A stretch of 64,000 nt of DNA from Eledone cirrhosa. Taxonomy: Eukaryota. The translations under genes were made by a program, and so were the position numbers. The notes beneath the pieces were generated by a model, which was not told where the DNA came from, did not search any database, and saw only the letters and a program-made list of their open reading frames with translations. This document shows positions 1 through 56,644 of this stretch, piece by piece (positions within the stretch are counted from its first letter, which is position 1; each line of letters starts with the position of its first letter). The stretch spans positions 239,010,001 to 239,074,000 of the forward strand of contig OZ024742.1 of NCBI GenBank assembly GCA_964016885.1. The letters run 5' to 3'.

Positions 1-760
1 ACATGCCAGACAACAACACGACGGTAACATAAACAACATAGAAATTAGAATAATATCTAAACATAGAAATGACCTAGCAGATAGGCAAATCAGAGAGGCC
101 AGCGAAATAGAACTTAGAAGGCCAAGGCTAAACAGAAAAAATGAATGGAATAACAACACCCAAGCAAACAACACTGACCTAAGAGAAGTATAAATAAATA
201 AATAAATAAATACATACACAAGCACAACAAACACATATAAACACACACTAGTAAACTAAGATAGAATACAATAACCAATACACAGTCACCCAAACACGAA
301 CACACATCAAACAAAACACTATACACACACGCAAACGCATGCGCAGAGAAGACAAAAAAATAAACAAATAAATATTAAATAAACAGACTAAATAAAGATG
401 GCGTAGGCATACAATGCAACGGGAGGAAACATAATAGCACCACTGACGATGTTGCAGATGTGCAACGAAAGAACTTTGTTAGACTATATATATGTGTTTG
501 TGTCTATATTGTATCTGTATTTTTGACCGTTGGTCAGTCAATGGTAACATTGAGGACCGAATAAATTAAATTAACCGATATAAAGGACACAGAAGCGAAA
601 ACCAACCAAACAGTGAGTGTGTTCTGTTATTAATTCTGGCAATATTATTACACAAATATGACCCTCCCCAAGTATAACAATATTTGTTTCGACACACGAT
701 TTCATATCAAAAACATCGCAACATCGCAAAACTAATTCAACGCCGTTATATATATATATA
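1..760 (+). mobile_element. Penelope-like element 3' end (GIY-YIG C terminus plus pLTR)
   Basis: Frame from nt 2 reads HARQQHDG...DRQIREASEIELRRPRLNR (GIY-YIG C-terminal RE..I..P.LN motif), followed by a hammerhead at 443; tail 655-745 resembles 9170-9250. Confidence 0.75.
439..480 (+). ncRNA. Minimal type I hammerhead ribozyme motif
   Basis: CTGACGA-T-GTTGCA-gatg-TGCAAC-GAAA-GAACTT-TG: intact core and perfect 6-bp stem II; stem I is weak in this copy. Confidence 0.7.
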
Positions 761-820
761 TATATGGAAAAAATGAAATTTCATTTCTCCCTCTTAGTAC
801 GGCTGATACTTAAATATAAG

Positions 821-1299
821 TATGTATACGTACATACATATATGTATACAGACGTACAGTAGTATGTATATATATATACATACATGCACACATATATATA
901 TGTACGTATGGGTTTACCGAACATTTATTATAATGCTCGGTTTGTTTGTAAACAGACAGCCCGAATTAGTAGCCGTACAGTGTTCGGCAACCACCGTTGC
1001 CATTTTGTTCAACACTGACAAAGGAACGATGAACTAGTTTCTAGCTTATTAGCTGTCATCAGCACCGTATACCTTCCTAATAAGCTAGAAACTAGTTCAT
1101 CGTTCCTTTGTCAGTGTTGAAAAAAATGGCAACGGTGGTTGCCGAACACTGTATGGCTACTAATTCGGGCTGTTTGTTTACAAACAAACCGAGCATTATA
1201 ATAAATGTTCGGTAAACCAATACGTACATATATATATGTGTGCATGTATGTATATATATACATACTACTGTACGTCTGTATACATATATGTATGTACGT

Positions 1300-1306
<7 letters not shown>
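821..1306. repeat. Fold-back palindrome, about 230-bp arms, 24-nt spacer
   Basis: 821-1052 is the near-perfect reverse complement of 1077-1306; right end abuts (TA)n. Confidence 0.95.
1026..1068 (-). ncRNA. Minimal type I hammerhead ribozyme
   Basis: Minus strand ACGGTG-CTGATGA-C-AGCT-aata-AGCT-A-GAAA-CTAG-TT-CATCGT: 6-bp stem I (one G-U), intact core, palindromic ACUAGU stem III, GUU cleavage triplet. Confidence 0.8.
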
Positions 1307-1350
<44 letters not shown>

Positions 1351-2165
1351 GACAGGGGGGAAGAAAAAATGGCTTCACTTGTGCTTTTATAAATTAAGTT
1401 GTTGGTTGTTGGTTAGGTCTTAGGAGTTCTTGGTTAACGTAGGAGGTATTGTTTCGTTTTTAGAAAGACCTTTCACGCTGAGATGCGCTTGTCAAACTGA
1501 TGTGTATGTGGTGTGTTGTTCTATATATAGGGATTTAACATGTCTGTGGTGTGGTGGGGGTTTCTTTTCTCCCCCTTTAATAAGTGCATGGGTGTAGGTG
1601 TGTTGAAAAAGTGTTCATAGCAGTAATGAGTTGAGACGGTGAGTAGGGCTGGGTGGGGAGAAATGTAGCAAGTGCGGCCTGCCCCGGTCATTCTCGAAAA
1701 ATTCCTTTATTCAGGGGAAAAAGCTTTTAGTATTGCTTTTGTGTTGAGAATGGTCACGGGCAAATCGCACCTGCCAAGCTTGTGAATAATTCTTTTTTTC
1801 TTTTTTTCCTGAAGAATTTTTCTACGTCCATCCCAAAGTTAGTCCTTTGTTCAATACACACACATGTGCGCATATATGTACATACACACACGGGCATATG
1901 TAGGAATATATAGGCACACACCATCAATCACACACCCATGCACAAATACATCCACATACATACACAAAAACATATAGAGACATATATAAAAACACACATA
2001 TACATACGTACACACACGAATATGTACTCATACCTCCACATGGGTATATATACATACATACATACACACACATATACACATATACATACATACATATGTA
2101 TATATACATATATACATACATATACACATACACACACATACACACACACACATATATATATATAT

Positions 2166-2208
<43 letters not shown>

Positions 2209-2290
2209 TACATACATATACATACATACATATACATACATATACACACATAAAGATACATAACTAAATATACATATATACACATAAACG

Positions 2291-2368
<78 letters not shown>

Positions 2369-2467
2369 TATTTCCGTATATATACCCCTCCGTTCACACA
2401 TACATGCATGCACACACACACATACACACATACATCTATATAAATATACACATATAAAGAGAGAGGC

Positions 2468-2532
<65 letters not shown>

Positions 2533-2740
2533 TACAAACATACACACATCCATACATATATATACACACACACACACACACATACACACACCCACATACA
2601 TATATACCCACACGTACATACATCCATACATCCCTACACACATATATGTGTGTGTCTCACCGTTTACTCAGATATTCATGTGTATACATAAGAAGAGGGG
2701 GGGGGCGTAGTGAAATGGAATTTTACCTCCGAGTGTTAAT

Positions 2741-2972
2741 TCATTTTTTCGTGTTCAGTAGTGGTTTAAATTTTTCAATGAAGAATTCTTCTTTATATCT
2801 GCGGAAATGTTCGTTATCCGACCATATCTTGAAGAAAGGGAAGATTGTGAATTTTCCCTTCCCGCATGATGCAAAGTGTGCGCTACATGTGGTATTTCTG
2901 ACTGTGGGGTCTTTAATCTGTTGTTTATGTACCCGGACTCTATCATGTAATCCCGTTCCGGTTTCCCCTGGA
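2741..2972 (-). mobile_element. PLE GIY-YIG endonuclease C-terminal half (inverted fragment)
   Basis: GETGTGLHDRVRVHKQQI...HFASC...RRYKEEFFIEKFKPLLN. Confidence 0.85.
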
Positions 2973-2989
2973 ACAGAAGCCAAACAGAC

Positions 2990-3292
2990 CTACAAAAATT
3001 TTATTCGATCCTAAACAGGCTTCATGAAGCTATACAATTCACTATGGAATGTAACGAAAAGGAACTGCCCTTTCTAGATATCCTCATCATCAAAGGAGGG
3101 GAAAATATCATAACGGACCTATTTTGCAAACCCACTGACACACACCAATACTTAAATTTCCTCATCGAAGAGGGCAAACAGTTGTCCTTCAAAAACCATG
3201 ATAATTTCAAGGTCAATGCTAACATGAACTGCAAAACGAAAAACCTAATATATTGCGCAACATGTCCACAGTGTAAAGAGTATTACATTGGG
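2990..3292 (+). mobile_element. PLE RT thumb fused by deletion to GIY-YIG N-terminal half
   Basis: MECNEKELPFLDILIIK...TDLFCKPTDTHQYLNF (PLE RT LPFLD and KPT motifs), then NCKTKNLIYCATCPQCKEYYIG. Confidence 0.88.
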
Positions 3293-3312
3293 TATATATG
3301 TATGTGGGTGTG

Positions 3313-3352
<40 letters not shown>

Positions 3353-3372
3353 TGGATGTGTGTATGTTTGTA

Positions 3373-3424
<52 letters not shown>

Positions 3425-3691
3425 GAAAGTTATATTTAAACTGTTGGGTTAACAACGAGTAAATATTTATATTTCTCTCTGTTTCTTTACATGAAGTTCT
3501 TCTCTTTATCTATCTTTCTATATCTCTCTATTTAGTCACATGCATTTCTTCTTTTTCTTCGTTTCTCTTTCTTTCTTTCTTTCTCTTTTTCTTTTTACAA
3601 CTGTCCACAATATTTTTTACTGCCAAATCAACCTCCCAAATGCAAGGTGATTGAAAGGTATGTCGTATCTATTTATTTATAAGACTGTTTA

Positions 3692-3750
3692 TATTGTCTG
3701 AAGAAGGCATAACATATTGTTAATATGATATCCCTGAAATATATATAACG
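3692..3750 (+). ncRNA. Hammerhead-like motif, older copy of the 4797 family
   Basis: CTGAAGA-AGGCATAACATATT-gtt-AATATGATATCCCT-GAAA-TATA-TA; stem I imperfect. Confidence 0.5.
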
Positions 3751-3795
3751 AAATAAATATGGTTTTATAAATATAGTTTCCATTTATTTAATATC

Positions 3796-3891
<96 letters not shown>

Positions 3892-3948
3892 GTGTATATA
3901 TGTGTATATGTACATGTATGTATGTGTATGTTTGTATATATATGTGTG

Positions 3949-3984
<36 letters not shown>

Positions 3985-4243
3985 TATATGGATAGATGTG
4001 TATGTTTATGTGTGTGCGTATGTATGTGTATGTACCTATATATATGTATGTGCATATATGTATATATGTGTGTACATATGTGTATGTTTCTGTTTGTGTA
4101 TATGTATGTATGTATGTAGATGTATGTGTATATATATGTATATATATGTGTATGTGTATATGTCTTTATGTGCTCGTGTGTACGCACATATATATATATA
4201 TATGTATGTGTGTATGTATGTGTGTGTATGTGTATATATATGT

Positions 4244-4335
<92 letters not shown>

Positions 4336-4396
4336 ATGTACATGTATGTGTATGTATGTATGTGTGTATGTATGTACTTGTATGTGTATGTGTATG

Positions 4397-4433
<37 letters not shown>

Positions 4434-4488
4434 ATATGTATGTGTGTATATATATGTATATGGATATATATGTATGTGTATATGTGTG

Positions 4489-4556
<68 letters not shown>

Positions 4557-4640
4557 AAGTTATATTTAAAATTGTTGGGTTACAACTAGTAAATATTTAT
4601 AACTGATATAAAAGCACTCGACAAATATTTGGAGTATATT

Positions 4641-4896
4641 TACAATATTAAATAAATGGAAAACTATATTTATAAAACCATATCTATTTCATTATATATA
4701 TTTCGGGGATATCATATTAACAATATGCTATGCCTTCATCAGACAAAATACAATATAAACAGTTTTATCTATAAAACTGTTTATATTGTATTTTGTCTGA
4801 TGAAGGCATAGCATATTGTTAATATGATATCCCCGAAATATATATAATGAAATAGATATGGTTTTATAAATATAGTTTTCCATTTATTTAATATTG

Positions 4897-4898
<2 letters not shown>
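4641..4898. repeat. Palindrome with 128-bp arms and 2-nt spacer, one hammerhead-like motif per arm
   Basis: 4641-4768 versus 4771-4898, no mismatch seen; CTGATGA-stem II-GAAA-TATATA at 4797-4845 (+) mirrored at 4694-4742 (-). Confidence 0.93.
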
Positions 4899-4939
<41 letters not shown>

Positions 4940-5055
4940 GCCTCTCTCTTTATATGTGTATATATATATAGATGTATGTGTGTATGCATGTATGTGTGAA
5001 CGGAGGGGTATATATACGGACATATGTATATGCGTGTGTGTGTGTGTGTATACAC

Positions 5056-5120
<65 letters not shown>

Positions 5121-5202
5121 CGTGTATGTGTATATATGTATATTTAGTTATGTATCTTTATGTGTGTATATGTATGTATATGTATGTATGTATATGTATG
5201 TA

Positions 5203-5281
<79 letters not shown>

Positions 5282-6214
5282 ATGTGTGTGTATGTGTATA
5301 TGTATGTATATATGTATATATATATATGTATGTATGTATATGTGTATATGTGTGTGTATGTATGTATGTATATATACCCATGTGGAGGTATGAGTACATA
5401 TTCGTGTGTGTACGTATGTATATGTGTGTTTTTATATGTGTCTCTATATGTTTTTGTGTATGTATGTGGATGTATTTGTGCATGGGTGTGTGATTGATGG
5501 TGTGTGCCTATATATTCCTACATATGCCCGTGTGTGTATGTACATATATGCGCACATATATGTGTGTTGAACAAAGGACTAACTTTGGGATGGACGTAGA
5601 AAAATTCTTCAGGAAAAAAAGAAAAAAAGAATTATTCACAAGCTTGGCAGGTGCGATTTGCCCGTGACCATTCTCAACACAAAAGCAATACTAAAAGCTT
5701 TTTCCCCTGAATAAAGGAATTTTTCGAGAATGACCGGGGCAGGCCGCACTTGCTACATTTCTCCCCACCCAGCCCTACTCACCGTCTCAACTCATTACTG
5801 CTATGAACACTTTTTCAACACACCTACACCCATGCACTTATTAAAGGGGGAGAAAAGAAACCCCCACCACACCACAGACATGTTAAATCCCTATATATAG
5901 AACAACACACCACATACACATCAGTTTGACAAGCGCACCTCAGCGTGAAAGGTCTTTCTAAAAACGAAACAATACCTCCTACGTTAACCAAGAACTCCTA
6001 AGACCTAACCAACAACCAACAACTTAATTTATAAAATAATTTTTTTTAAGAAAAATTCTTTTTGGATTTTGTGAAGAAAATAAATTTGTTGAAAGCACAA
6101 GTGAAACCATTTTTTCTTCCCCCCTGTCTTAATATACCTAACTGTACCAAGGATTACACACATTTTCCAATATATATATATATATATATACATATATGTA
6201 TGTACGTATACATA

Positions 6215-6311
<97 letters not shown>

Positions 6312-6320
6312 GTATACATA

Positions 6321-6368
<48 letters not shown>

Positions 6369-6766
6369 TAACAGATTAAAGTTTAAGCAAAGAATCGCTG
6401 CTTTCACCCTCAACGGGATCTTCTGAAACTAACAAAGTCAATCTGTAAACGCAGAAGTGGATATTTCAAAAAAAGTTGCAACCGGAGGAAGACAGGAAGA
6501 CGATACTTTGGTTCGTGGAAACGTTCCCTGGCAAAGAACGGGAAAAAACGAATATAATACGTCATTAATAATACGTCATTAATAATACGTCATATTAGGA
6601 GCGGTGAAAAACAATTACGCGCAAAGACAGAACCACGTTTATGGTATAAAAGAAGTCGTAGACTAATGTTCTCTTAGATGGTTCAGAGAGACGTTCTCTG
6701 GCAATGAACGGAAAAAACGAAGATAATACGTCATATGTGGAGCGTGGAGAACAATGGCACGCAAAG

Positions 6767-6823
<57 letters not shown>

Positions 6824-6933
6824 TAACAGATTAAAGTTTAATCTGTTATTTTAATAAATATTTGCTCTACGGTTCTTATATATTTATCCTTATCGAGCCC
6901 TCTTTGGATTTTAGTCTTCAAATTTATTATTAT

Positions 6934-6971
<38 letters not shown>

Positions 6972-7080
6972 GAGTACAAATATTTTTGCATACACAATAA
7001 CAAAATATAAACAAACGTATTTATTTCACGAGGCTCGATAAGGATAAATATATATCAAATATATAAAAACCCTAGAGCAA

Positions 7081-7111
7081 ATCCCGAGCAACGCCGGGCC
7101 ATTCTGCTAGT
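7081..7111 (+). mobile_element. Helitron 3' terminus
   Basis: CCCGAGCAACGCCGGG hairpin, then CCATTCTG-CTAG|T; same end motif as 45439-45465. Confidence 0.7.
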
Positions 7112-7149
7112 TATATCTATTTATCAATCTGTTTTGGAAAATCCTAAAA

Positions 7150-7480
7150 ATACCGTGATCTGTCAGCCAACTACATTTTCCAGCCTGTGGTATTTGAGAC
7201 GTTTGGGGGAGTCGGGCTACTGACTGCGAGATTCCTATCTTCACTGGCGACTCGCCTAACGGAGGTAAGTGGTGAGCTCGTGAGGGCGCTTGGTTGTTCC
7301 AGCGCATCAGCCTCGCCATCACACGAGGTAACGCCGCGAGCATGCTGGCTTGCCTAAAAAATTATTAAAGAGGTTTCCCAGTGCTCCCCGCGATATCTTT
7401 TACTCTGGTAGCGGCCCAGTTGTACACCCCTTTCGCCTGCCGTTTGTTGTGTGGTCCCAGATGTGTGTGCTAACCGCTTC
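7150..7480 (+). mobile_element. CRE-like (restriction-like endonuclease) non-LTR retrotransposon 3' fragment
   Basis: YIFQPVVFETFGGVG..ARFLSSLATRL, frameshift, then WLFQRISLAITRGNAASML, the typical RLE C terminus of CRE-type elements; followed by a T-rich tract. Confidence 0.75.
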
Positions 7481-7685
7481 TGTGCTTTTTTTCTTTTTTC
7501 TTTTTTCTTTTTTCTTTCTTCTTTTTTCTTTTTTCTTTTTTCTTTTTTTTTCTTTTTTCTTTTTTCTTTCTTTTTTTTTTGTTTTCCCTTTCCTTTATAT
7601 CATATTTGTTTGTGTTTTCGTTCTATAAGCATTGTATTATATTTCTTTTTATACAACAGTGAGTAAAAATGAAATACGAATGATT

Positions 7686-7778
<93 letters not shown>

Positions 7779-8378
7779 TAAATATCTTTAAGTCGTTTGG
7801 AAGCCTCGACAATGCAAATGGGTAAATCTCCGGGTAACAAGATCCGGTGGTGGAGAGAGAGATGTAAGTGGGTGTACGTTGGGATGCGTGGTGTGTATAA
7901 GACGTGTAGAGGAATGAAGTAAAGAGTATAAAGGATAAAATTAAAATAACAACACGAGAGAGAGTTACCTTGGGAGAGATTTAATTGTCCCTATATATTT
8001 CGGATTCACATCCATCAACTGCGGTTTTTTTCCGGGGTGGGGGAAAGGTTGTCTGTCGGAAAGGTTCGAAACGCGTCCTCCGCTGTTTGTTGTTTTGAAT
8101 ATCTGAGGTATTCAGCAGAGCGCGCGTGCGCGTGAAATGGGGTCGGTCGGGCAGAGGTCAGCGGCCCAATGAGGGAGTGGGGTGGCGCTAGCTGTCAGTC
8201 CGTTCTCTGCCTGTTTGTTAAATGTTACTGTGTGTGTGTGTGCGTGTGTTGTTGCCTTGTTCCTCTGTATTGGCAGTGTAGTATGTTCGTATGGTGGAAT
8301 GCTACTGTGTGTGTGTGCGTGTGTAGTTGTCTCGTTTGTGTGTGTGTGTGTGAGTGTGTTGCTGCATCATTTGTTAAC

Positions 8379-8725
8379 TTAAACCAGCCACTTCATTTCG
8401 CTTCTCCCGGATCGATTGTTTATTTGCGGTGCCAGACGTTTGATAAAAAGCGCTTCCTTGATACGTAACGTGCCGACGTTTCTTTCAGTCGCTAGAATTG
8501 TGACAATGGGCCTTCCGTCTTTGTGTCCGCATTTGTCTATGTGTTTCCGGAAAGACGAGGCCCTAGTTTTAGTGTGTTCCTTGATCCGGATGTGCAAAGG
8601 TCGGATTGTGTTACCTATATAGTATTGGTTGCACCTGTCACATTCTATCTTATACACGACGTATGTGCGTAGGCAACAGTTCGCATGGCGTATCGGGCAG
8701 TCTCTGAGGGAGCACGCGTCAGTAG
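8379..8725 (-). mobile_element. PLE GIY-YIG endonuclease fragment
   Basis: VYKIECDRCNQYYIGNTIRPLHIRIKEH...LRIKEALFIKRLAPQINNR with an upstream Cys pair. Confidence 0.9.
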
Positions 8726-8738
8726 ATTTCCCGGGTTT

Positions 8739-8802
<64 letters not shown>

Positions 8803-8809
<7 letters not shown>

Positions 8810-9199
8810 ATACTTTGTGAGGGTCATGTTGCCAATAAGAAACGCACGCACCAGTTGCTTTCACTCCAATTTATTATAAATTAAATTTATAAATTTATAA
8901 ATTTCCGGTTGGTTGGTTGGTTGGTTCCACAACCGGGCGGTTGTTCATATATTGTCAAAGTTCTTTCGTCACTCATTCTGTGACCTCTTCAGTGACTGGG
9001 GATTCTTTTCTTTGTTTTGTGCCTCTCCTTTATTTTGTCCAGAATGTGTGACGAAAGAACTTTGACAATATATGGTTGTGGAACCAACCAACCAACCGGA
9101 AATTTATAAATTTATAAATTTAATTTATAATAAATTGGAGTGAAACAACTGGTGCGTGTGTTACTTGTTGGCAACATAACCCTCCCAAAGTATAACAAT
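8803..9199. repeat. Fold-back palindrome between (TA)n tracts (PLE pLTR-derived)
   Basis: 8803-8980 versus 9040-9199 reverse-complementary with some divergence and a short indel. Confidence 0.9.
8954..8996 (-). ncRNA. Minimal type I hammerhead ribozyme
   Basis: Minus strand GTCA-CTGAAGA-G-GTCAC-agaatga-GTGAC-GAAA-GAACTT-TGAC: stems I and II perfect; same GAAAGAACUUUG as the 443 motif with a different stem II sequence. Confidence 0.8.
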
Positions 9200-9255
9200 A
9201 TCGGTTTCAACACACGTTTTCAGATAAAGAATCTTGCTAAACAAATTCAGAAACG

Positions 9256-9352
<97 letters not shown>

Positions 9353-20618: not shown

Positions 20619-22101
20619 CTATAACAGAAAAATAAGTTTTTTTTATGATAGAAAATAAAATGACAATATTTTAGAATATATGAATACTTAAGTACTTTTA
20701 TATTGTCCTAAAGGTTTCAGTTCAAAACTATCCACTTGTGCTAAAATAAACATAGTAAAGTACTTGCTTTATTCAGTAGATTCCGAATGCTATATGTACA
20801 TCTTTCTTGTCTTAGTTTCCATAGAAGATTTTTGTTTTTGATACAAATAGTAACTCCCATTCCCAACAAAATTATATCTGAGCAGAACTTGAAATTCTTT
20901 TCTTACTCAGTGACCACCAATGATGTTTCTGCATAGCAGGGTACCCTGGAAAGTTAGTACGTCACAAATCATTGGTCTTCAGTTTATTAAAACCTAACAA
21001 ATGTAAAATTGTTACCTTAGAAATTTTAAAAACATTTTACAATGAGTAAGTCTGCCTATGAACTCCACTCATCACTAATAACCTGACACTAACATCACAA
21101 ATCAAGGGTCTTTAGTTTATTAAAACCTAACAAACATAAAATTGTTATCTTACAAATTTTAAAAACATTTTACAATGAATAAGTCTTCCTATGAATTGCA
21201 CACATCACTAATAACCTGACGCTAAAGGTTGCTGTTAGATTGTGCTATTGATCATGTACTGTTAGAGTTTTCTCTATAGACATCATTCTAACAAATTAAA
21301 TATATCGTGAGATGACACAAGACCAGGATCTCTGGCAATATGCGGTAATACAGAAGGCCCGACTTCCCATGAGCTCAAGCTGAAGCACATGTACAGTATG
21401 TGTGTGTCCCCCCCCCCCCCAACCCACACTGTAAAGTGGACAGGTAAAAGACACAGCAAAAAGCACCCAACCCACACTGTACATGTGGTTAGCATTAGGA
21501 AGGGCATCCAGCCGTAGATAACCAGCCAGAAACACCCCTATTTTAGTGAGACATGATCACTCGACACAACTTGCCTTAAAATAGGACCAGTCTAACCCAT
21601 GCTAGTGTGGAAGATGGATGTTAATCGATGATGATGGGACACATCATTCTTAATTAGACACTCATGTTGCTACAGAGAGAAGGTGAGCTGGCAGAGTCAT
21701 TAGAATATCAGATAGTAGACTTTGCAGTATTTGTTCCAGCACTCTACAGTTCAAATCCAAACATGAAATGAAGCATCTTTCTCAAGAATGTAATGCGCTG
21801 CCCTGTCCAGCAATTGGATCCATAATCATATGATCATGAGCCCAATATCAAGCCATGCACCTCCATATTAGTTCCCCCTCCCTCCCACAACAGACATCCT
21901 TTCATCATCATCATCGTTTTAACGTCCACTTTCCCTGCTAGAAAGGGTTGGACAGGTCTACATAGACCAAGTTAGCACAGAAACGGGGTCACTGACTCCC
22001 CAGAAAGGCCAGGGATCTGTATCTCACTTACGTACAGTGTCATGGTTGATAAAAAAGTGCCATCCAAGATTGGGTTCAATTCTTCCTCTATATTGCTTTC
22101 T

Positions 22102-25100
22102 CACATACAGGTCCATACATACAGGTCCATACATACAGGTCCATACATACAGGTCCACACATACAGGTCCACACATACAGGTCCACACATACAGGTCCAC
22201 ACATACAGGTCCACACATACAGGTCCATACATACAGGTCCATACATACAGGTCCATACATACAGGTCCACACATACAGGTCCACACATACAGGTCCATAC
22301 ATACAGGTCCATACATACAGGTCCATACATACAGGTCCATACATACAGGTCCATACATACAGGTCCATACATACAGGTCCATACATACAGGTGCATATAT
22401 ACAGGTCCATACATACAGGTCCATACCTACAGGTCCATACATACAGGTCCACACATACAGGTCCACACATACAGATCCACACATACAGGTCCATACCTAC
22501 AGGTCCATACATACAGGTCCATACATACAGGTCCATACATACAGGTCCATACATACAGGTCCATACATACAGGTCCATACATACAGGTCCATACATACAG
22601 GTCCATACATACAGGTGCATATATACAGGTCCACACATACAGGTCCATACATACAGGTCCATACCTACAGGTCCACACATACAGGTCCATACATACAGGT
22701 CCATACATACAGGTCCATACATACAGGTCCATACATACAGGTCCACACATACAGGTCCATACATACAGGTCCACACATACAGGTCCATACATACAGGTCC
22801 ATACCTACAGGTCCACACATACAGGTCCATACATACAGGTCCACACATACAGGTCCATACATACAGGTCCATACATACAGGTCCACACATACAGGTCCAT
22901 ACATACAGGTCCACACATACAGGTCCATACATACAGGTCCATACATACAGGTCCATACAGGTCCATACATACAGGTCCATACATACAGGTCCATACATAC
23001 AGGTCCACACATACAGGTCCACACATACAGGTCCATACATACAGGTCCACACATACAGGTCCACACATACAGGTCCACACATACAGGTCCATACATACAG
23101 GTCCATACATACAGGTCCACACATACAGGTCCACACATACAGGTCCATACATACAGGTCCACACATACAGGTCCATACATACAGGTCCACACATACAGGT
23201 CCATACCTACAGGTCCATACCTACAGGTCCATACATACAGGTCCACACATACAGGTCCATACATACAGGTCCATACATACAGGTCCACACATACAGGTCC
23301 ATACATACAGGTCCACACATACAGGTCCATACCTACAGGTCCATACCTACAGGTCCATACATACAGGTCCACACATACAGGTCCATACATACAGGTCCAT
23401 ACATACAGGTCCATACATACAGGTCCATACATACAGGTCCATACATACAGGTCCACACATACAGGTCCATACATACAGGTCCACACATACAGGTGCACAC
23501 ATACAGGTCCACACATACAGGTCCATACATACAGGTCCATACATACAGGTCCATACATACAGGTCCACACATACAGGTCCACACATACAGGTCCATACAT
23601 ACAGGTCCATACATACAGGTCCATACATACAGGTCCATACATACAGGTCCACACATACAGGTCCATACATACAGGTCCATACCTACAGGTCCACACATAC
23701 AGGTCCATACATACAGGTCCACACATACAGGTCCATACATACAGGTCCATACATACAGGTCCATACATACAGGTCCATACATACAGGTCCATACATACAG
23801 GTCCACACATACAGGTCCACACATACAGGTCCACACATACAGGTCCATACATACAGGTCCATACATACAGGTCCATACATACAGGTCCACACATACAGGT
23901 CCATACATACAGGTCCATACATACAGGTCCACACATACAGGTCCATACATACAGGTCCACACATACAGGTCCATACCTACAGGTCCATACCTACAGGTCC
24001 ATACATACAGGTCCACACATACAGGTCCATACATACAGGTCCATACATACAGGTCCACACATACAGGTCCATACATACAGGTCCACACATACAGGTCCAT
24101 ACCTACAGGTCCATACCTACAGGTCCATACATACAGGTCCACACATACAGGTCCATACATACAGGTCCATACATACAGGTCCATACATACAGGTCCATAC
24201 ATACAGGTCCATACATACAGGTCCACACATACAGGTCCATACATACAGGTCCACACATACAGGTGCACACATACAGGTCCATACATACAGGTCCATACAT
24301 ACAGGTGCACACATACAGGTCCACACATACAGGTCCATACATACAGGTCCATACATACAGGTCCATACATACAGGTCCATACATACAGGTCCATACATAC
24401 AGGTCCACACATACAGGTCCATACATACAGGTCCATACATACAGGTCCACACATACAGGTCCATACATACAGGTCCATACATACAGGTGCACACATACAG
24501 GTCCATACATACAGGTCCACACATACAGGTCCATACATACAGGTCCATACATACAGGTCCACACATACAGGTCCACACATACAGGTCCATACATACAGGT
24601 CCATACATACAGGTCCACACATACAGGTCCATACATACAGGTCCACACATACAGGTCCATACCTACAGGTCCATACCTACAGGTCCATACATACAGGTCC
24701 ATACATACAGGTCCACACGTACAGGTCCATACATACAGGTCCATACATATTGGTCCACACATACAGGTCCATACATACAGGTCCACACATACAGGTCCAT
24801 ACCTACAGGTCCATACCTACAGGTCCATACATACAGGTCCATACATACAGGTCCACACATACAGGTCCATACATACAGGTCCACACATACAGGTGCACAC
24901 ATACAGGTCCATACATACAGGTCCATACATACAGGTGCACACATACAGGTCCATACATACAGGTCCATACATACAGGTCCATACATACAGGTCCATACCT
25001 ACAGGTCCATACATACAGGTCCATACATACAGGTCCATACATACAGGTCCATACATACAGGTCCACACATACAGGTCCATACATACAGGTCCACACATAC

Positions 25101-27708
25101 AGGTCCACACATACAGGTGCACACATACAGGTCCATACATACAGGTCCATACATACAGGTCCATACATACAGGTCCACACATACAGGTCCATACATACAG
25201 GTCCATACATACAGGTGCACACATACAGGTGCACACATACAGGTCCATACATACAGGTCCATACATACAGGTCCATACATACAGGTCCATACATACAGGT
25301 CCATACATACAGGTGCACACATACAGGTCCATACATACAGGTCCATACATACAGGTCCATACATACAGGTCCATACATACAGGTCCACACATACAGGTCC
25401 ATACATACAGGTCCATACATACAGGTCCATACATACAGGTCCACACATACAGGTCCACACATACAGTCCACACATACAGGTCCACACATACAGGTCCATA
25501 CATACAGGTCCATACATACAGGTCCACACATACAGGTCCATACATACAGGTCCATACATACAGGTCCATACATACAGGTCCATACATACAGGTCCATACA
25601 TACAGGTCCATACATACAGGTCCATACATACAGGTCCATACCTACAGGTCCACACATACAGGTCCACACATACAGGTCCATACATACAGGTCCATACATA
25701 CAGGTCCATACCTACAGGTCCACACATACAGGTCCACACATACAGGTCCATACATACAGGTCCATACATACAGGTCCATACATACAGGTCCACACATACA
25801 GGTCCATACATACAGATCCATACATACAGGTCCATACATACAGGTCCATACATACAGGTCCATACATACAGGTCCACACATACAGGTCCATACATACAGG
25901 TCCATACCTACAGGTCCACACATACAGGTCCACACATACAGGTCCATACATACAGGTCCACACATACAGGTCCATACATACAGGTCCACACATACAGGTC
26001 CATACATACAGGTCCATACCTACAGGTCCACACATACAGGTCCACACATACAGGTGCACACATACAGGTCCATACATACAGGTCCATACATACAGGTCCA
26101 CACATACAGGTGCACACATACAGGTCCATACATACAGGTCCATACATACAGGTGCACACATACAGGTGCACACATACAGGTCCACACATACAGGTCCACA
26201 CATACAGGACCACACATACAGGTCCACACATACAGGTCCATACATACAGGTCCATACATACAGGTCCATACATACAGGTCCATACATACAGGTCCATACC
26301 TACAGGTCCACACATACAGGTCCACACATACAGGTCCACACATACAGGTCCATACATACAGGTCCATACATACAGGTCCATACATACAGGTCCATACATA
26401 CAGGTCCACACATACAGGTCCATACATACATGTCCATACATACAGGTCCATACATACAGGTCCATACATACAGGTCCATACCTACAGGTCCACACATACA
26501 GGTCCACACATACAGGTCCACACATACAGGTCCATACCTACAGGTCCATACCTACAGGTCCATACATACAGGTCCATACATACAGGTCCATACCTACAGG
26601 TCCACACATACAGGTCCATACATACAGGTCCATACCTACAGGTCCATACATACAGGTCCATACATACAGGTCCATACATACAGGTCCATACATACAGGTC
26701 CATACATACAGGTCCATACATACAGGTCCACACATACAGGTCCATACATACATGTCCATACATACAGGTCCATACATACAGGTCCATACATACAGGTCCA
26801 TACCTACAGGTCCACACATACAGGTCCATACCTACAGGTCCATACCTACAGGTCCATACATACAGGTCCATACATACAGGTCCACACATACAGGTCCACA
26901 CATACAGGTCCATACATACAGGTCCACACATACAAGTCCATACATACAGGTCCATACCTACAGGTCCACACATACAGGTCCATACATACAGGTCCATACA
27001 TACAGGTCCATACCTACAGGTCCACACATACAGGTCCATACATACAGGTCCACACATACAGGTCCACACATACAGGTCCATACATACAGGTCCACACATA
27101 CAGGTCCATACATACAGGTCCATACATACAGGTCCACACATACAGGTCCATACATACAGATCCACACATACAGGTCCATACATACAGGTCCATACATACA
27201 GGTCCATACATACAGGTCCATACATACAGGTCCATACATACAGGTCCATACATACAGGTCCACACATACAGGTCCATACATACAGGTCCATACATACAGG
27301 TCCATACATACAGGTCCATACATACAGGTCCATACATACAGGTCCATACATACAGGTGCATACATACAGGTCCATACCTACAGGTCCACACATACAGGTC
27401 CATACATACAGGTCCATACCTACAGGTCCACACATACAGGTCCATACATACAGGTCCATACATACAGGTGCACACATACAGGTCCATACATACAGGTCCA
27501 CACATACAGGTCCATACATACAGGTCCATACCTACAGGTCCACACATACAGGTCCATACATACAGGTCCATACATACAGGTCCATACCTACAGGTCCACA
27601 CATACAGGTCCATACATACAGGTCCACACATACAGGTCCATACATACAGGTCCATACATACAGGTCCATACATACAGGTCCATACATACAGGTCCATACA
27701 TACATGTC
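22102..27708. repeat. 14-bp minisatellite (CATACAGGTCCAYA)n, about 400 units, in COX18 intron 4
   Basis: Continuous array with recurrent variants (CCATA/CCACA, CATAC/CCTAC, GTCC/GTGC); phase slips near 22955 and 25467. Confidence 0.99.
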
Positions 27709-27752
27709 TCTAATGAACTACTTGTCTCATTTAACTTTATGTAGACTTCTGC

Positions 27753-33149: not shown

Positions 33150-36100
33150 AGACAGAAACCATACACACTCCCCCGCAAAAATTCACCCTTCAACGTAAGC
33201 ACAATGAAAGAAAGAGCAGGAGAAATCGTAGAGATGTTAGAGTGAAAGGAAATTGGAGTATGCTGCGTGCAAGAGACTAGAGTGTTTGTAGGCAAAAATC
33301 AGTGCTATGAATTTTTCTGGGTGGGAAATGACAACAGGATGGGTGGTGTAGGTATACTATTAGCTGACAAATGGGTAGATAAAGTAATCTCAGTGAACAG
33401 GGCGGACGCAAGAATCATTAAACAATTGCTACAATCATATCAGCTTACGCACCCCAATCTGGATTGCCAAAAGTTTTACGAGTCCTTAATGCACACTACT
33501 GCTCTAACAAACAACAATGACTTCCTAATCATTGCAGGAGACTTTAACGGACACGTTGAGAAACACGGTTGCGGCTTCTATAGAGTCCACGGAGGCTACA
33601 GGTTTGGCACAAGAAATGAAGAAGGCTTCAGGCTTCTAGAATTCTGCAACGCCAATGACATGTCGATATGTAACACAAACTTCAAAAAACATGACAACCA
33701 TCTGATCACCTATAGATCAGGGGAGCATTCTAGTCAGATAGATTTTATCCTTATCAGAGGACGAGGTAGATGGACGGTTGTAAACACAAAAGCCTTCCCT
33801 GGTGAGGAATGTACCTCCTAACATAACTTAGTTGCTAGCGACCTCATTGTCAGAACTAGAGTTACTTGGAAACAGAAGGCAACCTGGAGAAGAAAGATCT
33901 GGAAGCTGAAAGAGCCCTCAGCCAGTAACATCATCATCATCATCATTATCATCGTTTAACGTCCGTGTTCCACGCTTGCATGGGTTTGGACGGGAGTTTT
34001 CCCACTTGAGGCAAGAGTGGTTGTCTTGCTCGCATAGGACTGTCTGGCGGGTTTTCTACAGTTGGATGCCCTTCCTAACACCAACCACATTTACAGTGTG
34101 GGGCTGGGAGGTTTTTACCGTGTTGCCTATACGGCCACATTACAGCGTGGACTGTCTGGCGGGTTTTCTACAGCTGGATGCCCTTCCTAACACCAACCAC
34201 ATTTAAAGATATCTAACTCGATGCCTATGACAGTAAAGAAGAATAGATAGAGACATTCAATATAGAAGAGCACTGGGAGTTCCTAAAAAATAATTTACTA
34301 AAGGCGATGGACAAGATTTGTGGTTGGAGCAAGACCACAGGGAGGAGGAGAGTGATTTGGTGGCGGAACAATAAGGTAGATGAGACAATTAAAGCCAAGA
34401 GACAGGCATGGAGAGAATGGAAGAACGGGGGAAGCAAGGTACATTACATAGAGACCAGGAGGGAAGCTAGACAACAAGTATATTTTGCTAGAAGGGAAGC
34501 GGAGGATAGAAAATTCAAGCATGTTTTGCAGCGCGAGGACCAGAAATAGGAGGTGTTCAGGATTGCGAGGCAGTGTGTTAGAGAAAATTGTAATGTCATT
34601 GGAGAGAAGTGTATCCGGAATGATAAAGGTGAGCTTGCCCTCACAAGTGCTGAGAGGAAAGATGTGTGGAAGAGCCATTATGAAAGATTACTAAATGAGA
34701 AGAAGGCATGCAGAGAAAGAGACTACCCGAAGTGGACCCTATAGAGGGGCAGCAATACAAGTCAGCAGCAGCGTAGTAAGTAAGGCAATTAAAGATATGA
34801 AGACTGGGGCAACCGGTCCATCGGGTATAGCTGCCGAGATGCTGAAAGCATCTGGATCGGTAGGTCATGCCATAACCACATGTATTGTTAACCAGGTAAT
34901 ACTAGAGGGTGTCATACCAAAGGATTGGTGCAGCAGCATCATTGTCAACTGCTACAAGGGTATACACTAGATAGAGGAAACTATAGAGGTATAAAGCTGA
35001 TGGACCAGGTCATGAAAGTAACGGAAATAGTTATAGCACAGTTGATTAGGGACCGGGTAAAATTAGATGAGATGTAGTTTGGGTTTGTGCCAGGAAAAGG
35101 CACCACTGATACTCTCTTCCTTGTGAGGCAGTTACAGGAAAAGTACCTAGCTAAAAGTAAGCCGTTCTACCTGGCATTTGTTGACCTGGAAAAAGCCTTC
35201 AACAGATTGCTCCGTGCTATAATCTGGTGGGCTCTTAGAAAACTAGGAGTAGATGAATGGCTTGTGAAAGCTGTACAAGTCATGTATAGGGGAGCAGTCA
35301 GCAAAGTTAGGGTTAAAAATGACTATAGCGAGGAATTTAGCATACAGGTTGGTGTCTACCAGGGCTCTGTTCTTAGCCCTCTCCTGTTTATTATAGTATT
35401 GCAGGCTATAACAGAGGAGTTTTAGACCGGATGCTCATGGGAACTTCTGTATGCAGATGATCTTACACTTATAGCTGAATCTATGGTGGAATTAAAGAAG
35501 AAATTCCAAACATGGAAGCAGGGACTAGAAAGAAAGGGTCACAAAGTCAACCTGACAAAGACTAAGATCCTTGTAAGTTGACATGAAAACAGAACGCGGA
35601 TCCCCTCAGGGAAATGGCCTTGCTCAGTATGTAGGAAAGATGTAGGTAGCAATTCCATCCTCTGCCCCAAATGCAAACTATGGGTACAAAAGAGATGTAG
35701 TGGGATCTCAGGAAGCTTAGTTAAGAATGTAGGCTTTACATGTAGCAGCTGCACCGGGACAGTAAGCAGCAAACAGCCACAGGAAACAAGCACTACCAAA
35801 CTCTGGGAGGGCTCTGTAGAAACAGTAGACAGCTTCTGCTACCTAGGTGACCATATTAGCAGCAGAGGTAGGTGTTCTGAAAGTACAGTAACCAGAGTAA
35901 GAACGGGATAGAAGAAGTTCAGGGAGCTACTACCACTGCTAGCTGCAAAAGGCTTTTCCCTCAAAATGAAAGGCAGACTGTATGATGCATGCATACGAAC
36001 AGCAATGTTACATGGTAGTGAGACCTGGGCGCAGTGTGTAGAAGACTTGCGTAGATTAGAAAGAAACGAAGTTTGCATGCTCCAATGGTTGTGTAATAGT

Positions 36101-36722
36101 AATGTACGCAAACGGCAAAGCATAAACGAATTGAGAGAAAGGGACTGAGCATAAGAGGAATCAAATGCTGTGTAGGAGAGGACGTTGCGTTGGTATGGAC
36201 ATGTGATGCGTATGAAGGATGACAGCTGCATAAAAAGGTGCAGAGCACTAAAAGTCGATGGAAGCCTTGGAGTGGGGAGACCCAAGACCTGGGATGAGGT
36301 GATAAAAGCTGACCTTGCCCAATTGCACCTCTCAAAGGCGATGACACAAGACTGTGACCTCTGGCGTCATGCAGTAATACAGAAGACCCGACTTTCCACA
36401 GGTATAAGCCGAAGCTGAAGTATATAGACAATATGACCCCACCCCCTCCCACTGCAAAGTGGTCATGGAGATGTCATGATAAAAAAGCACCCAGTCCACA
36501 CTGTAAAGTGGTCACGTAGGTGCCACAGTAAAAAAGTACCCAGTACTCACTGTAAATGAGATTGGTGTTAGGAAGGGCAGCCAGCTGTAGAAATCAAGTC
36601 AAAATCAGTTCCCGTATGAGCAAGACAAGGTCACCTGACCTGGCATTACCCACAAGAGGACAACCCATCTAACCCATGCTAGCATGGAAGAATGGACGTA
36701 AAAAGGTGATGATGATGATGAT
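33150..36722 (+). mobile_element. Near full-length degenerate RTE-clade LINE (APE endonuclease, RT, Cys-rich insert, (GAT)n tail)
   Basis: VQET, GVGILL, AGDFNGHV, SQIDFIL; FGFVPGKGTTD, FVDLEKAF, GVYQGSVLSPLLF, LLYADDL; many stops; interrupted at 33928-34203 by a short (CAT)n-headed repeat. Confidence 0.93.
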
Positions 36723-37152
36723 ATATATACATATATGTATGACATTAAACTGCATCCAGTGGCAAGGGTCCAGTTCGGGAGTTCAGGAGCTGTGAGGAAT
36801 GTGGAATTACCTCTTAGTTGTGTATGAATGTATGGATATATTATATGTGTATATGTATGTCTGTGTATATGCATATATATATGTATATGTCTGTGTGTGT
36901 GTGTATGTATGTACATGTGTGTGTCTGTGTGGGTGTGTACATATACACATGTATATGTATATTTTTCTATTACTAATCTGTATGAACAAATTCATTTATT
37001 CACATTTGCATTCACTTGCTGCCCGGTGTTGCCATTAATGATACAAGGAACTATTACTGAGTCATCCTAGCATGACATACTCCCGCCTATATGGTCACCC
37101 TCCCATTCAGCTTCCTGTTTACACTAAAGCCAGTCTTTGAACGTCTAACTCA

Positions 37153-37252
37153 CATACCAATACGTGCCTACACGCACAAGTAGATACACACGCATGCGAG
37201 TGTGTAAGAATTCGTGTGTATCTACTTGTGCGTGTAGGCACATATTGGTATG
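37153..37252. repeat. 40-bp inverted repeat, 20-nt loop
   Basis: 37153-37192 versus 37213-37252, one mismatch. Confidence 0.9.
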
Positions 37253-37539
37253 CACTAATATATACACACAGAGTTTGAGACATCATGCAGATAAGTGTTA
37301 AAACGATTATATATTGTAGGGTTTTGAAAATATAGTATGTAGATGCATATAGTTACCATTTCCTACCCCACCTCCACCACCTTCCGGTATGCCCGCCTGA
37401 CGCCATATACCATCCACTTCCTCATGCATATAGTGGAGTGGAGAAGCCCCCTAAGTCCAGTAAAACAAATTCACTAGTGCTGGTGGCATCAATAAAGCAC
37501 CCTGTCCATGCTGTAAAATGGAGGTGATAGAAGTGACAT

Positions 37540-39505
37540 TCAGCCATTAAATCTCTTGCTAATCTGATCATCTAGATATCGGAAGCTATCAACCACCTCT
37601 ATAGACCCTACCTGCGTTTGAAAAATGTGTCTATCACTGACACTTCTACTATCAATTTTCCCTGAACATCTACTACATATGAAGTTTTCCTTTCCTGTTA
37701 GTTTGCCTGCTATCCCACTACACCTCTTCTGTACCCAAGATCTGTATTGTGTACATTCTATAGAGTTTATGCCAACTCCTTTTCTACATATCGAGCATGG
37801 CCATTTCCCAGATGGAATCGGGGTCTTGTCCTCTTTCCTACTTATCAATACTTTAGTCTTTGCTAGGTTCACTTTCAGTCCCCTTGATTCCAACTAAGTA
37901 CCAGATCATCAACATAGAGAAGTTCCTAAGGGCAGCCAGTCTTAAACTCCTCTTTTATGGCTTGGAGAACTATAATGAATAAAACTGGGCTGAAGACCGA
38001 ACCCTGATGAATTCCTACTTGTATCTGGAATTCCTCACTAAATTCCATTCCTACTTTCACTTTTCTGACAGCTCCTCTGTACATAGCTTGCACTGACCTC
38101 ACAAGCCATTCTTCTGCACCTAGTTTCCTTAGGGACAACTAGATGACAGGTTGGGTTACTCTATTAGAGGTATTCTTTAGGTCAACAAAAGCTAAATATA
38201 GTGGCTTATTCTTCTCTAAGAACCTCTCTTGTAGTTGTCTCACTAAGAAGAGGGCATCTGTTGTACTTTTCCCAGGCACAAAACCAAACTGCATCTCATC
38301 TAATTTCTCTAGTTGTGCTAATATTCTCTCTGCCACTTTCATAACCTGATCCATCAGTTTTATGCCCCTATAATTGCTCCTCCCCAGAGCATCCCCTTTA
38401 CCTTTGTAACAATTAACAAGAATATTGCTGCACCAGTCTTTGGGTATGACCCTGCCATATATAAATTGATTGACTATGCATGCAACCAGTTTAGTTCCTA
38501 CTTCTCCTGATGCCTTCAACATCTCAGCAACTATCCCTTACAGTCCAGCAGCTTTACCACCTTTTATTTCCTTAATTGCTTCTTTGACCCTATAGTCGTC
38601 AACCTCAATAGCTGGTCCCTCTGTTGGGAGTAGTTTCTCTCTCTCCCATTCATTCTCAACATTTATCAGTCTCTCATAATGACATTTCCAGGCCTCTTTT
38701 TTCTGAGCATCAGTGACGCTAAGTGATTGGCATCATTTCAGACACCCTTATCTCCAACAACATCCTGATTTGATTTACAATGATACACTGCCTTGCAATG
38801 CAGAACACCTCACATTTCTGATCCTCTTGTCACAGAACATTGGCAAACCTCCTATTCTCAGTTTCCCTGTGTGCTATGTATACCTGTCGTCTGGATCTCT
38901 TTTAGCAGCTGAGTATCGATCTACTGTGCTGTTCCACCACCAAGTCACCCTCTGTCTGGTTGGAGTTTTACTCCAGTCACAAGTCTCTTCAGTTGCGTGC
39001 AGTAGGTTGTCGTGTAAGAACTTCCAATTATCTTGTATATCATACAATTCTAAGTCGTCTACTTTCTCGTCATACATATCTTGTAGAACTTTTCTAAACT
39101 TAGCTTCCAGACCTTCCTGTGTCTAATTCTGTCTCTTGCTTATTGAGATGTCACTAACGACTAACCGATGTTGGGGGGTACATTCTTCCCCAGGGTATGC
39201 CTTAGTATTCATAACCATTTATCTGTCTCGTTGCTGAACTAGCAAGAAGTCAATCAGGCTTATGTGCTCGCCTGATTGGTAGGTGATTGGCAGGTTTCCT
39301 AAAGTTAGGGTGATGCAAAGGGTTAGTCCACTTGCATCACAAAATTCAAGAAGCCTCACTCCTTCTTTGCTTCTTGAGCCATAACCATAACCACCATGTA
39401 CCCCTGTGTATCCATCCTGGAGCTGTCGAACATGACCATTGAAGTCACCTGCTAGTATGACTAGGTCTCTGTCCTCTGTCACTATGGTTGTCTCTAGAAG
39501 TTGTA
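37540..39505 (-). mobile_element. Degenerate RTE-clade LINE fragment
   Basis: AGDFNGHV, NYRGIKLMDQVMK, GIHQGSVFSPVLF and WPCSICRK motifs with deletions. Confidence 0.92.
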
Positions 39506-40251
39506 TAAATACATAAATATGATGATGATGATGATGATGATGATGATGTATGTATTTATTTCATTAAATCAGCAGGCTAATGTTGCAAAAAAAAACACTA
39601 TATATATTTCAATGGCCTGGTTACATAAGACCCTGGCAACATCATCAAACAGAGAATATACTTTATCTTGAGATGGCCTGCAAATTCGGTGTTATTGCTG
39701 CAGCAGACCATTTTCAAATAAAATATATTCTATACTCTACATTGCTTCTATTCATTCCTTCCTTGAGGAGGTGGATATTGTTTTTAACAGCTGCTTGCCA
39801 TTCCTATTAACAGTCACTTCACAGCATGAACTGAGTGCATTTTATCATATAGGATGAAGGAAACACATTCCATTCCAATATTCAAAATATGTTCTATATA
39901 TATTTTTTCTAAATCAGTAACATGGCAGTTTTTTATATCATCTTTAAAAGATATTCTTATTATGCATACATAGAATTTTAGAATTCATTTTTACTACCCA
40001 GTCAACCCATCCCTGTAAAGTGGTTGTGCTGGTGCCACAACAAAAAAGCACCCAATCTACCCTGTAAGGTGGCTGATTAGGAGTGTAAAAAAACAAGCCC
40101 AAAAAATGGATCACATGAGCAACTCATGGTAACCTGATGTGTCTAGCCTAATAACATGATAACCCATCTAATCTATGCAAGCATGGAAAATAGACATTAA
40201 ACAGTGATGATGATGAATCCAAGTATTGAAAATGCAGACTAAGAATATTAC

Positions 40252-47980: not shown

Positions 47981-48060
47981 TATAATGTTATTATAGTATT
48001 GTATACACATGATATAATAGTATATTAAATATCGAATGATACATATTATATATAAGCTTT

Positions 48061-49065
48061 GTGGGGGTAGGCATTTTACTGGCTGAGAGATGGATCAATA
48101 AGATAATAGAGGTAGTTAGAGTTAGTAATAGAATAATTAAGCTTAGATTAGTTGTAGGCAAGAGACTGTTGACAATCATCTCTGCCTATGCTCCCCAGGC
48201 AGGCTTAGGTAAAGAAGAGAAAGACTGCTTTTACGAGCAACTTTTAGAAACAGCCACAATGACAGAGGACAGAGACATTATTATGCTAGCAGGGGACTTC
48301 AATGGTCATGTTGGACAGCTCCAGGATGGATACACTGGGGTACATGGTGGGGACGGTTATGGCTCAAGAAATGAAGGTGTGAGGCTTCTTGAATTTTGTG
48401 ATGCAAGTGCACTAAACATTTTCAACATTAACTTCAAGAAACCTACCAACCGCCTAATAACCTTCAAATCAGGTGAGCACATAAGCCAGATTAACTTCTT
48501 GCTAGTTAGGCAGCGAGACAGACAGATGGTGTCAAATACTAAGGCATACCCCGGGGAAGCATGTACCCCACAACATAGGTTAGTTGTTAGTGACATCTCA
48601 GTAAGCAAGAAACAAAATGAGACATACAGGAAGGTATGGAAAAGAAAGGTCTGGATGCTAAAAGACCTTTCGCTAAAATATAAATTCAGGAAAGCCCTTC
48701 AAGATGTGTATGAAGAAAAAGAAGATGATTTAGAATCATAAGATATAGATGATAACTAGAATTTCTTACGTGACAACTTACTGCAGGCTACTGATGAAAC
48801 TTGTGGCTGGAGCAGAGCTCCGATCAGACAGAGAGTGACCAGGTGGTGGAACAGCACGGTAGGTAGAGCCATTAGAGACAAAAGACTACAAAATTGCTAC
48901 AAAGGTAAAGGGGATGCTCTGGAGAGGAGCAATTATAGGGGCATAAAGCTGATGGATCAGGTTATGAAAGTGACAGAGAGAATATTAGCACAACTAGAGA
49001 AATTAGATGAGATGCAGTTTGGTTTTGTGCCTGGAAAAAGTACAACAGATGTCCTCTTCTTAGTG
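48061..49065 (+). mobile_element. RTE LINE fragment (endonuclease plus short RT piece)
   Basis: GVGILL..ISAYAPQ..AGDFNGHVG, then a jump to NCYKGKGDALERSNYRGIKL. Confidence 0.92.
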
Positions 49066-49116
49066 AATTTCAACCACCACCCATTTCACAAATATATATT
49101 AGATATATATATATAT

Positions 49117-56062: not shown

Positions 56063-56152
56063 AATAATAATAGTAAAAAATATATTAGGAACAATAAAAT
56101 AAACCCACAAACTCTTTAACTCCCATATAAAACCTACAACCCAGAATAATCA

Positions 56153-56640: not shown

Positions 56641-56644
56641 CTGC

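Follow-up and report, generated by a model that had tools for sequence, protein, structure and literature searches.

We analysed a 64,000-nucleotide stretch of the genome of Eledone cirrhosa (assembly GCA_964016885.1, contig OZ024742.1, positions 239,010,001 to 239,074,000 of the forward strand), here called the window. It is eukaryotic DNA with many microsatellites, and it carries two hammerhead ribozyme motifs, A and B, within remnants of Penelope-like elements (PLEs). The original prediction, an earlier note made from the sequence, had claimed motifs at 443-478 (+) and 8954-8996 (-), and both were present there when read off the letters. Hammerhead A (441-478, +) consists of a 2-bp stem I (441-442/477-478, CA/UG), the core CUGACGA (443-449), an extra U (450), stem II (451-456/461-466, GUUGCA/UGCAAC around a GAUG loop), GAAA (467-470), G-AA-C (471-474), U16.1 (475) and U17 (476), with the predicted cut site at 476/477. 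Hammerhead B (8954-8996, -) has a 4-bp stem I (8996-8993 GUCA with 8957-8954 UGAC), the core CUGAAGA (8992-8986), an extra G (8985), stem II (8984-8980/8972-8968, GUCAC/GUGAC around AGAAUGA), GAAA (8967-8964), G-AA-C (8963-8960) and a final UU that ends with U17 (8958), and is predicted to be cut at 8958/8957. The core (C3 U4 G5 A6 N7 G8 A9, G12 A13 A14 A15.1, U16.1 H17) is complete in both copies, and G10.1-C11.1 closes stem II in both.

The motif pattern matched twice in the window against a mean of 0.00 across 100 shuffles. When both strands of the 64 kb were searched with a looser type I descriptor, which allowed one core mismatch and 0-1 extra base and required a stem II of at least 4 bp and a stem I of at least 2 bp, only copies A and B were returned. 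A third, half copy at 9041-9064 (+), missed by the original prediction, holds the 3' side of stem II plus GAAAGAACUUUG in an inverted arm adjoining B; GAAAGAACUU at 9053-9062 is part of this hammerhead 3' half. The Rfam scan of the window gave 86 matches at E ≤ 1, all to miRNA families below the gathering score, and no hammerhead family. By their sequence, the assignment of both motifs to the PLE minimal hammerhead (min-HHR) lineage is well supported, and catalysis is predicted. In the predicted fold of copy B, stems I and II are both formed. In the predicted minimum free energy (MFE) fold of copy A, the CUGACGA core is paired with the 3' flank; because of this and its 2-bp stem I, copy A looks decayed or self-blocked and is probably inactive.

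The window opens with the 3' end of a Penelope-like open reading frame (ORF), cut by the window edge, that encodes the C-terminus of a GIY-YIG endonuclease (2-193, +, phmmer). This 63-aa ORF end matched the C-termini of four proteins in phmmer (E 1.9e-7 to 3.2e-4), and its stop codon lies 250 nt upstream of hammerhead A. One of the four matched proteins, used as a query, led to 50 longer relatives. Pfam was run on five of these: one contained a reverse transcriptase (RT) with GIY-YIG after it, a second a C-terminal GIY-YIG and a third an RT, and two had no match. Relatives of the ORF end (P0003, P0008 and P0041) carry a cysteine cluster (CX2-5CxxC linker) ahead of GIY-YIG; the window starts past these parts. 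Such a linker is described for Neptune and Nematis elements (PMC8557442). We rejected a Naiad identity of the element, as its endonuclease is C-terminal. Word-index protein searches with both endonuclease pieces of the window gave no match, nor did a locus search of prokaryote genomes with P0003.

Downstream of hammerhead A, the start of the element ORF (MTLPKYNN..., 658-746, +), recognised by comparison with the inverted arm, ends at the (TA)n target tract that closes element A (747-765, read from the letters). An 8-nt duplication near 713-728 shifts its frame. The inverted arm has ITLPKYNN... at the same place, and the two ORF starts differ by seven synonymous and five non-synonymous codon changes over 21 codons, with 10 of the 13 base changes at third positions. 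Hammerhead B lies in a 5'-truncated pseudo-long terminal repeat (pLTR) of a sister subfamily (8802-9040, -) that has a tail-less end 26 nt into the ORF start. It adjoins an inverted, 5'-truncated copy of the B pLTR (9041-9259, +), comprising the hammerhead 3' half and the ORF start with a tail (9176-9259), followed by (TA)n. The tail, ~60 nt before (TA)n, is present in A and in the inverted arm and absent from the B arm. The endonuclease end upstream of A, the shared ORF start, the tailed and tail-less (TA)n ends and the inverted, truncated partner of B place each motif in a pLTR, ordered as endonuclease end, hammerhead, ORF start and TA tract. As judged from these letters, the copies in the window are truncated, non-autonomous leftovers.

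This layout agrees with the pLTR anatomy of PLEs, and the optional tail at insertion ends is likewise described (PMC8557442; PMC11167929). Close points of comparison come from the account of the Poseidon element of Anolis carolinensis, PAc (Frangieh et al. 2024, PMC11167929), which shares the hammerhead near the ORF start, a pLTR running into the ORF, an optional tail at the insertion end and AT-rich targets; in our window the (TA)n ends are seen directly. The two differ in that the ORF starts ~130-180 nt after the hammerhead here but inside stem II in PAc, and in that the tail is ~60 nt here against 30-40 in PAc. Unlike Poseidon as described there, the relatives of our element, though not the window itself, show a cysteine linker of the Neptune/Nematis type.

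Copies A and B differ widely outside the motif: 21 of 42 positions are identical in the upstream flank and 82 of 148 in the downstream flank, with 121 of 193 for A against the inverted arm. Within the motif, GAAAGAACUUUG is identical at 12/12 positions and CA-CUGANGA at 8/9, the sole difference being N7, while the extra base and stem II share 11/17. From this comparison we take A and B to be old sisters within one Penelope-like lineage. One further element, ATGGCGTAGG, is kept ~40-55 nt upstream of both hammerhead subfamilies although the flanks are 50% identical; in A it is seen as the AAGATGGCGTAGG motif ~40 nt upstream of the hammerhead (395-407, +), and for the B family in loose contig ends at 9018 and 9040. 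It may mark a candidate pLTR (internal) promoter, and we take it to resemble a YY1 site.

To describe the wider family we used contigs of 4 of the 23 listed sequencing runs, among which no RNA run was listed, aligned to B only (8845-9075) at 80% likeness. Run X1, from the best-represented species and possibly from the source sample, contributed 6,320 contigs, X6, from another species, 5,304, X5 23 and X7 3; with so few contigs the last two carry little weight. Variants were listed from a threshold of 3%, the figures refer to the variants and loose ends listed, and depth stands for no copy number. The contig numbers show that the family is high-copy. Depth in X1 was 299 at 9042 against ~51,000 at 9032, so the junction of the inversion appears to be confined to this locus. 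We rejected 8802-9259 as a multi-copy foldback element because almost no depth spans that junction.

The catalytic positions were nearly invariant. No variant was among those listed at C3, U4, G5, A6, G8, A9, A13, A14, A15.1, G15.2 or U16.1, and G12 and C11.1 showed only 2-10% decay of CpG type; the core was otherwise fixed in these contigs. N7 is variable (A>U in 63% of X6 depth and 1% of X1 depth), and changes at H17 stay within the permitted bases (U>A in ~10% of X1 depth, giving a CUA site). U occupies 8973 in 99.4-100% of depth in three runs, giving the B family a 6-bp stem II (GUCACA/UGUGAC) like that of A; the 5-bp stem II of copy B is a private mutation. Against GUUGCA/UGCAAC in A, pairs 3 and 4 are changed on both sides, and the stem II covariation claimed by the original prediction therefore extends from copy A to the B family. 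Near-identity of the core beside flanks of 50-63% identity, together with variation at N7 and H17 as in working hammerheads, points to selection on the catalytic core.

The AA loop of stem III is kept as well, in more than 90% of depth in X1 and X6, the two deeply covered species. In X6, depth at the loop exceeded that of the flanks 24-fold on one side and 10-fold on the other, which indicates that sequences with diverged flanks share it. The second loop base changed from A to G in 6.8% (X1) and 7.7% (X6) of depth, giving an AG loop. The same change at the first base, giving a GA loop, was found in 0.07% and 0.27%, plus one X5 contig. In X5 the variants at 8953, 8958, 8962 and 8976 all have a depth of 103.5 (of 440) and probably stem from a single contig, which would represent a subfamily with a GA loop (GGAC) and a CUA cut site. 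At neither loop base did A>U appear among the variants listed at ≥3% in the four runs, and so no palindromic loop was listed.

The original prediction had singled out three features as unusual: an extra core nucleotide, cleavage after CUU and a non-palindromic stem III. We compared them with the 56 motifs of Fig. S3 in Cervera and De la Peña 2014 (PMC4209133), the figures having been counted by hand from machine-read text. A base between A9 and G10.1 is named there as a trait that PLE minimal hammerheads conserve, and it is present in 54 of the 56 entries; an extra base is thus the published norm. U17 occurs in 24 of the 56 motifs and CUU in three (Philodina, Oikopleura and Chrysemys), and in our family CUU is not even fixed. 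The third feature is the only unusual one, and it emerged stronger than the letters of two copies could have made it, as the AA loop is a lineage trait. All nine two-base and all five four-base loops among the Fig. S3 entries are palindromic, and the non-palindromic entries are of other kinds (an odd loop and a longer stem in Hydra, and a C.A pair without a loop in Latimeria 3). Family Xen_7 in Fig. S4 of that source may have a G-A-C stem III, though its figure text is too garbled to count.

Otherwise our motifs resemble the PLE minimal hammerheads of that source (PMC4209133) closely. They are of type I, with a single additional base separating A9 from G10.1 (U in copy A, G in copy B), the G10.1-C11.1 pair, a stem II of 5-6 bp, a short stem I, a G-C pair at 15.2-16.2 and U17, and they share the pLTR position, the pairs on opposite strands and the predominance of truncated copies. 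The Oikopleura dioica entry, GAAA-G-AU-C-UU, is one base away from the stem III found here. Unlike them, the 2-nt loop of our family is not self-complementary in its AA form, and the variants AG and GA are not palindromic either. The motifs are a variant of the min-HHR class, set apart by a conserved non-palindromic loop. The finding is one of variation inside a known hammerhead class.

Lünse, Weinberg and Breaker (RNA Biol 14:1499) are said to have described short-stem-III hammerhead variants that cleave as dimers. As characterised in a review (PMC6765202), by whose description alone we compare them, those variants resemble ours in their association with PLEs, a diminished stem III and a dimer model, and differ from ours in a loop that the review calls palindromic. 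We found no description of non-palindromic PLE loops in the literature compared, which left out Lünse 2017, the largest survey; GAAAGAACT had coding matches only in the supplement of Craig 2021. Viral contigs were scanned for the same stem III, and 0 of the 120 loci listed (~160 estimated) had a stem II of at least 4 bp. Metagenome contigs gave 43 loci, none with a stem II of at least 5 bp plus stem I. One of the metagenome loci, with 4+4 pairs counting G-U, was set aside as coding sequence whose look-alikes lose pairing. Given these scans, the AA loop is therefore without support outside the Penelope lineage of A and B.

How a hammerhead with such a stem III could work was assessed with nearest-neighbour energies, which include neither tertiary terms nor a special term for a GAAC loop. 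A homodimer would hold tandem A-A mismatches, as the original prediction had argued. In the 6-base self-duplex AG-xy-CU, an AU loop gave -5.0, GA -1.7 and AG -0.4 kcal/mol; GA and AG are the two most stable non-pairing loops in the homodimer. For B, exchanging stems I to form a double hammerhead costs 2.8 kcal/mol relative to two monomers; with an AU loop it would gain 0.8. A monomer in which the GAAC loop is closed on A15.1-U16.1 costs +4.8 (A) or +5.7 (B) kcal/mol.

We lean towards a weak two-copy (double) hammerhead, bridged by a tandem purine-purine mismatch and probably assisted by the element protein. In a transcript with two pLTRs, the stem I strands would be exchanged between both motifs, and helix III would form as A-U, G-C, A.A, A.A, C-G, U-A. 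The dimer would then be held by its two stems I, with helix III merely closing across the mismatches, and each site would be cut after CUU, or after CUA in one subfamily. Such a weak helix III could leave uncut RNA as template and make cutting conditional, with the element's own protein helping the motifs to fold. We favour this double hammerhead because the catalytic pattern appears selected, the dimer is the cheaper route in the model, the AG and GA variants make better tandem mismatches and Poseidon offers a precedent: the anole hammerhead is reported not to cleave without its protein (PMC11167929). For the same reason, a lack of cleavage in naked monomer or dimer RNA would not speak decisively against a function.

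Several observations weigh against the double hammerhead. None of the 16 possible loops makes a weaker self-duplex than AA (+2.4 kcal/mol). Selection for dimers should favour the palindrome that is one mutation away, yet no such loop reached the listing threshold in the four runs. The AG and GA loops prove no pairing, since transitions are the easiest mutations. At the loop, depth reaches no more than 51-59% of its maximum over the 5' core and stem II; contigs that differ in stem III and the 3' flank could therefore have been clipped instead of counted. Copy A, with its 2-bp stem I, misfolds in the prediction, and the analysis saw neither cleavage nor a transcript nor a tandem element of full length. 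We rejected a register shift that would place the cut after UUU and make the loop AAC, as it loses the first stem I pair and also puts the 10% U>A change at 8958 onto the invariant U16.1.

The retention of the worst dimer loop would be accounted for if the motifs acted as monomers. Helix III would then be A15.1-U16.1 alone, closing a GAAC loop that belongs to the GANC tetraloops and perhaps docks to protein or RNA, and no partner would be needed. The variation fits G-A-N-C, as the second base is near fixed and the third varies. GAAC is also known as a folded tetraloop in a group IIC intron, where its third base varies and its first A stacks on a distant base (PMC3616724). There, however, the loop caps a real helix, as opposed to one A-U pair here, a closure that is costly in our estimates. 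The X5 contig with GGAC breaks the GANC rule, and GAUC and GACC, which would satisfy it equally, are absent from the listed variants. Motifs with a one-pair helix III are moreover reported to cleave poorly alone, with 6% in 1 h for axolotl Amex1 (PMC7229834). We consider a monomer of this kind unlikely. We are similarly doubtful that the lineage escaped the dimer rule, with the GAAC tetraloop on its single A-U pair allowing the monomer to cut once protein clamps it; if true, this would be a natural hammerhead without helix III, a protein-gated switch.

A loop that minimises helix III stability would also be expected of a motif that is non-catalytic or nearly dead, with the fold serving as a protein-binding or regulatory structure or travelling as a passenger in the master copies, and AA being a frozen change that switched cutting off. 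Accounts of other PLEs leave room for this. Catalytic mutants of the anole hammerhead are reported to have no effect on insertion in vitro, and no RNA-seq reads are reported to end at its cut site (PMC11167929); Naiads, which lack canonical hammerheads, spread as well (PMC8557442), and reviews call the role of PLE hammerheads unknown (PMC7761336; PMC6765202). Yet the fixed core, a free N7, an H17 restricted to U or A and paired stems I and II persist across subfamilies and two species, a pattern that would be hard to keep without selection on an active fold. Loss of catalysis seems to us improbable on these grounds. An obligate heterodimer, in which a second hammerhead with a UU loop (AGUUCU) completes the AA motif to a perfect 6-bp helix III, would match the palindrome in energy (-4.6 kcal/mol), but it is very improbable, as no A>U loop variant was listed in the four runs and no GAAAGUUCU occurs among the 12 GAAAGNNCUH sites in the window, this search covering the family and the window only.

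According to the working model, the minimal hammerheads of animal PLEs pair via a palindromic stem III. The lineage described here is successful, with contigs in the thousands from each of two species, and retains the catalytic pattern together with the loop that least favours a dimer. It is a natural test case for RNA dimers versus protein-assisted monomers versus hardly any cutting. Descriptors that require a palindrome will miss families like that of A and B.

Other repeats lie close to the two copies. Directly after element A, a near-perfect palindromic (foldback) element of ~490 bp occupies 810-1295 between TA tracts. Another Penelope-like insertion (1385-6036) has 977-nt inverted arms of 96% identity and contains an RT/endonuclease fragment at 2951-3289 (tblastn E 5e-5 to P0041). 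Each of its arms carries a hammerhead-like remnant, UUGACAA-GCGC..GCGU-GAAAGGUC, at 1495-1465 (-) and 5926-5956 (+), with a core of the U3-A8 type and no pairable stem I found. Beyond the (TA)n tract of B lies a GIY-YIG fragment of a different Penelope-like element (8379-8720, -; Pfam E 2.3e-4, below the cut-off), which we rejected as the parent of B since it sits 3' of B. The hammerhead descriptor returned nothing after this fragment in the window. The TA-flanked stretch 7770-8760 (-) has a GIY-YIG C-terminus and then ~600 nt without a descriptor match, and may be the end of a PLE that lacks a canonical hammerhead.

Further along the window, a 166-aa frame at 55264-55764 (+) had no Pfam match; by eye, one stretch of it resembles a decayed PLE reverse-transcriptase motif. 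Many broken frames at 33246-39560, 48040-49977 and 56085-58067 resemble, by eye, pieces of LINE endonuclease and RT. A tandem array of ~5.8 kb (21923-27750) has an apparent 14-bp unit and several frames open for ~2,000 codons; by its appearance it is a satellite, not a gene.

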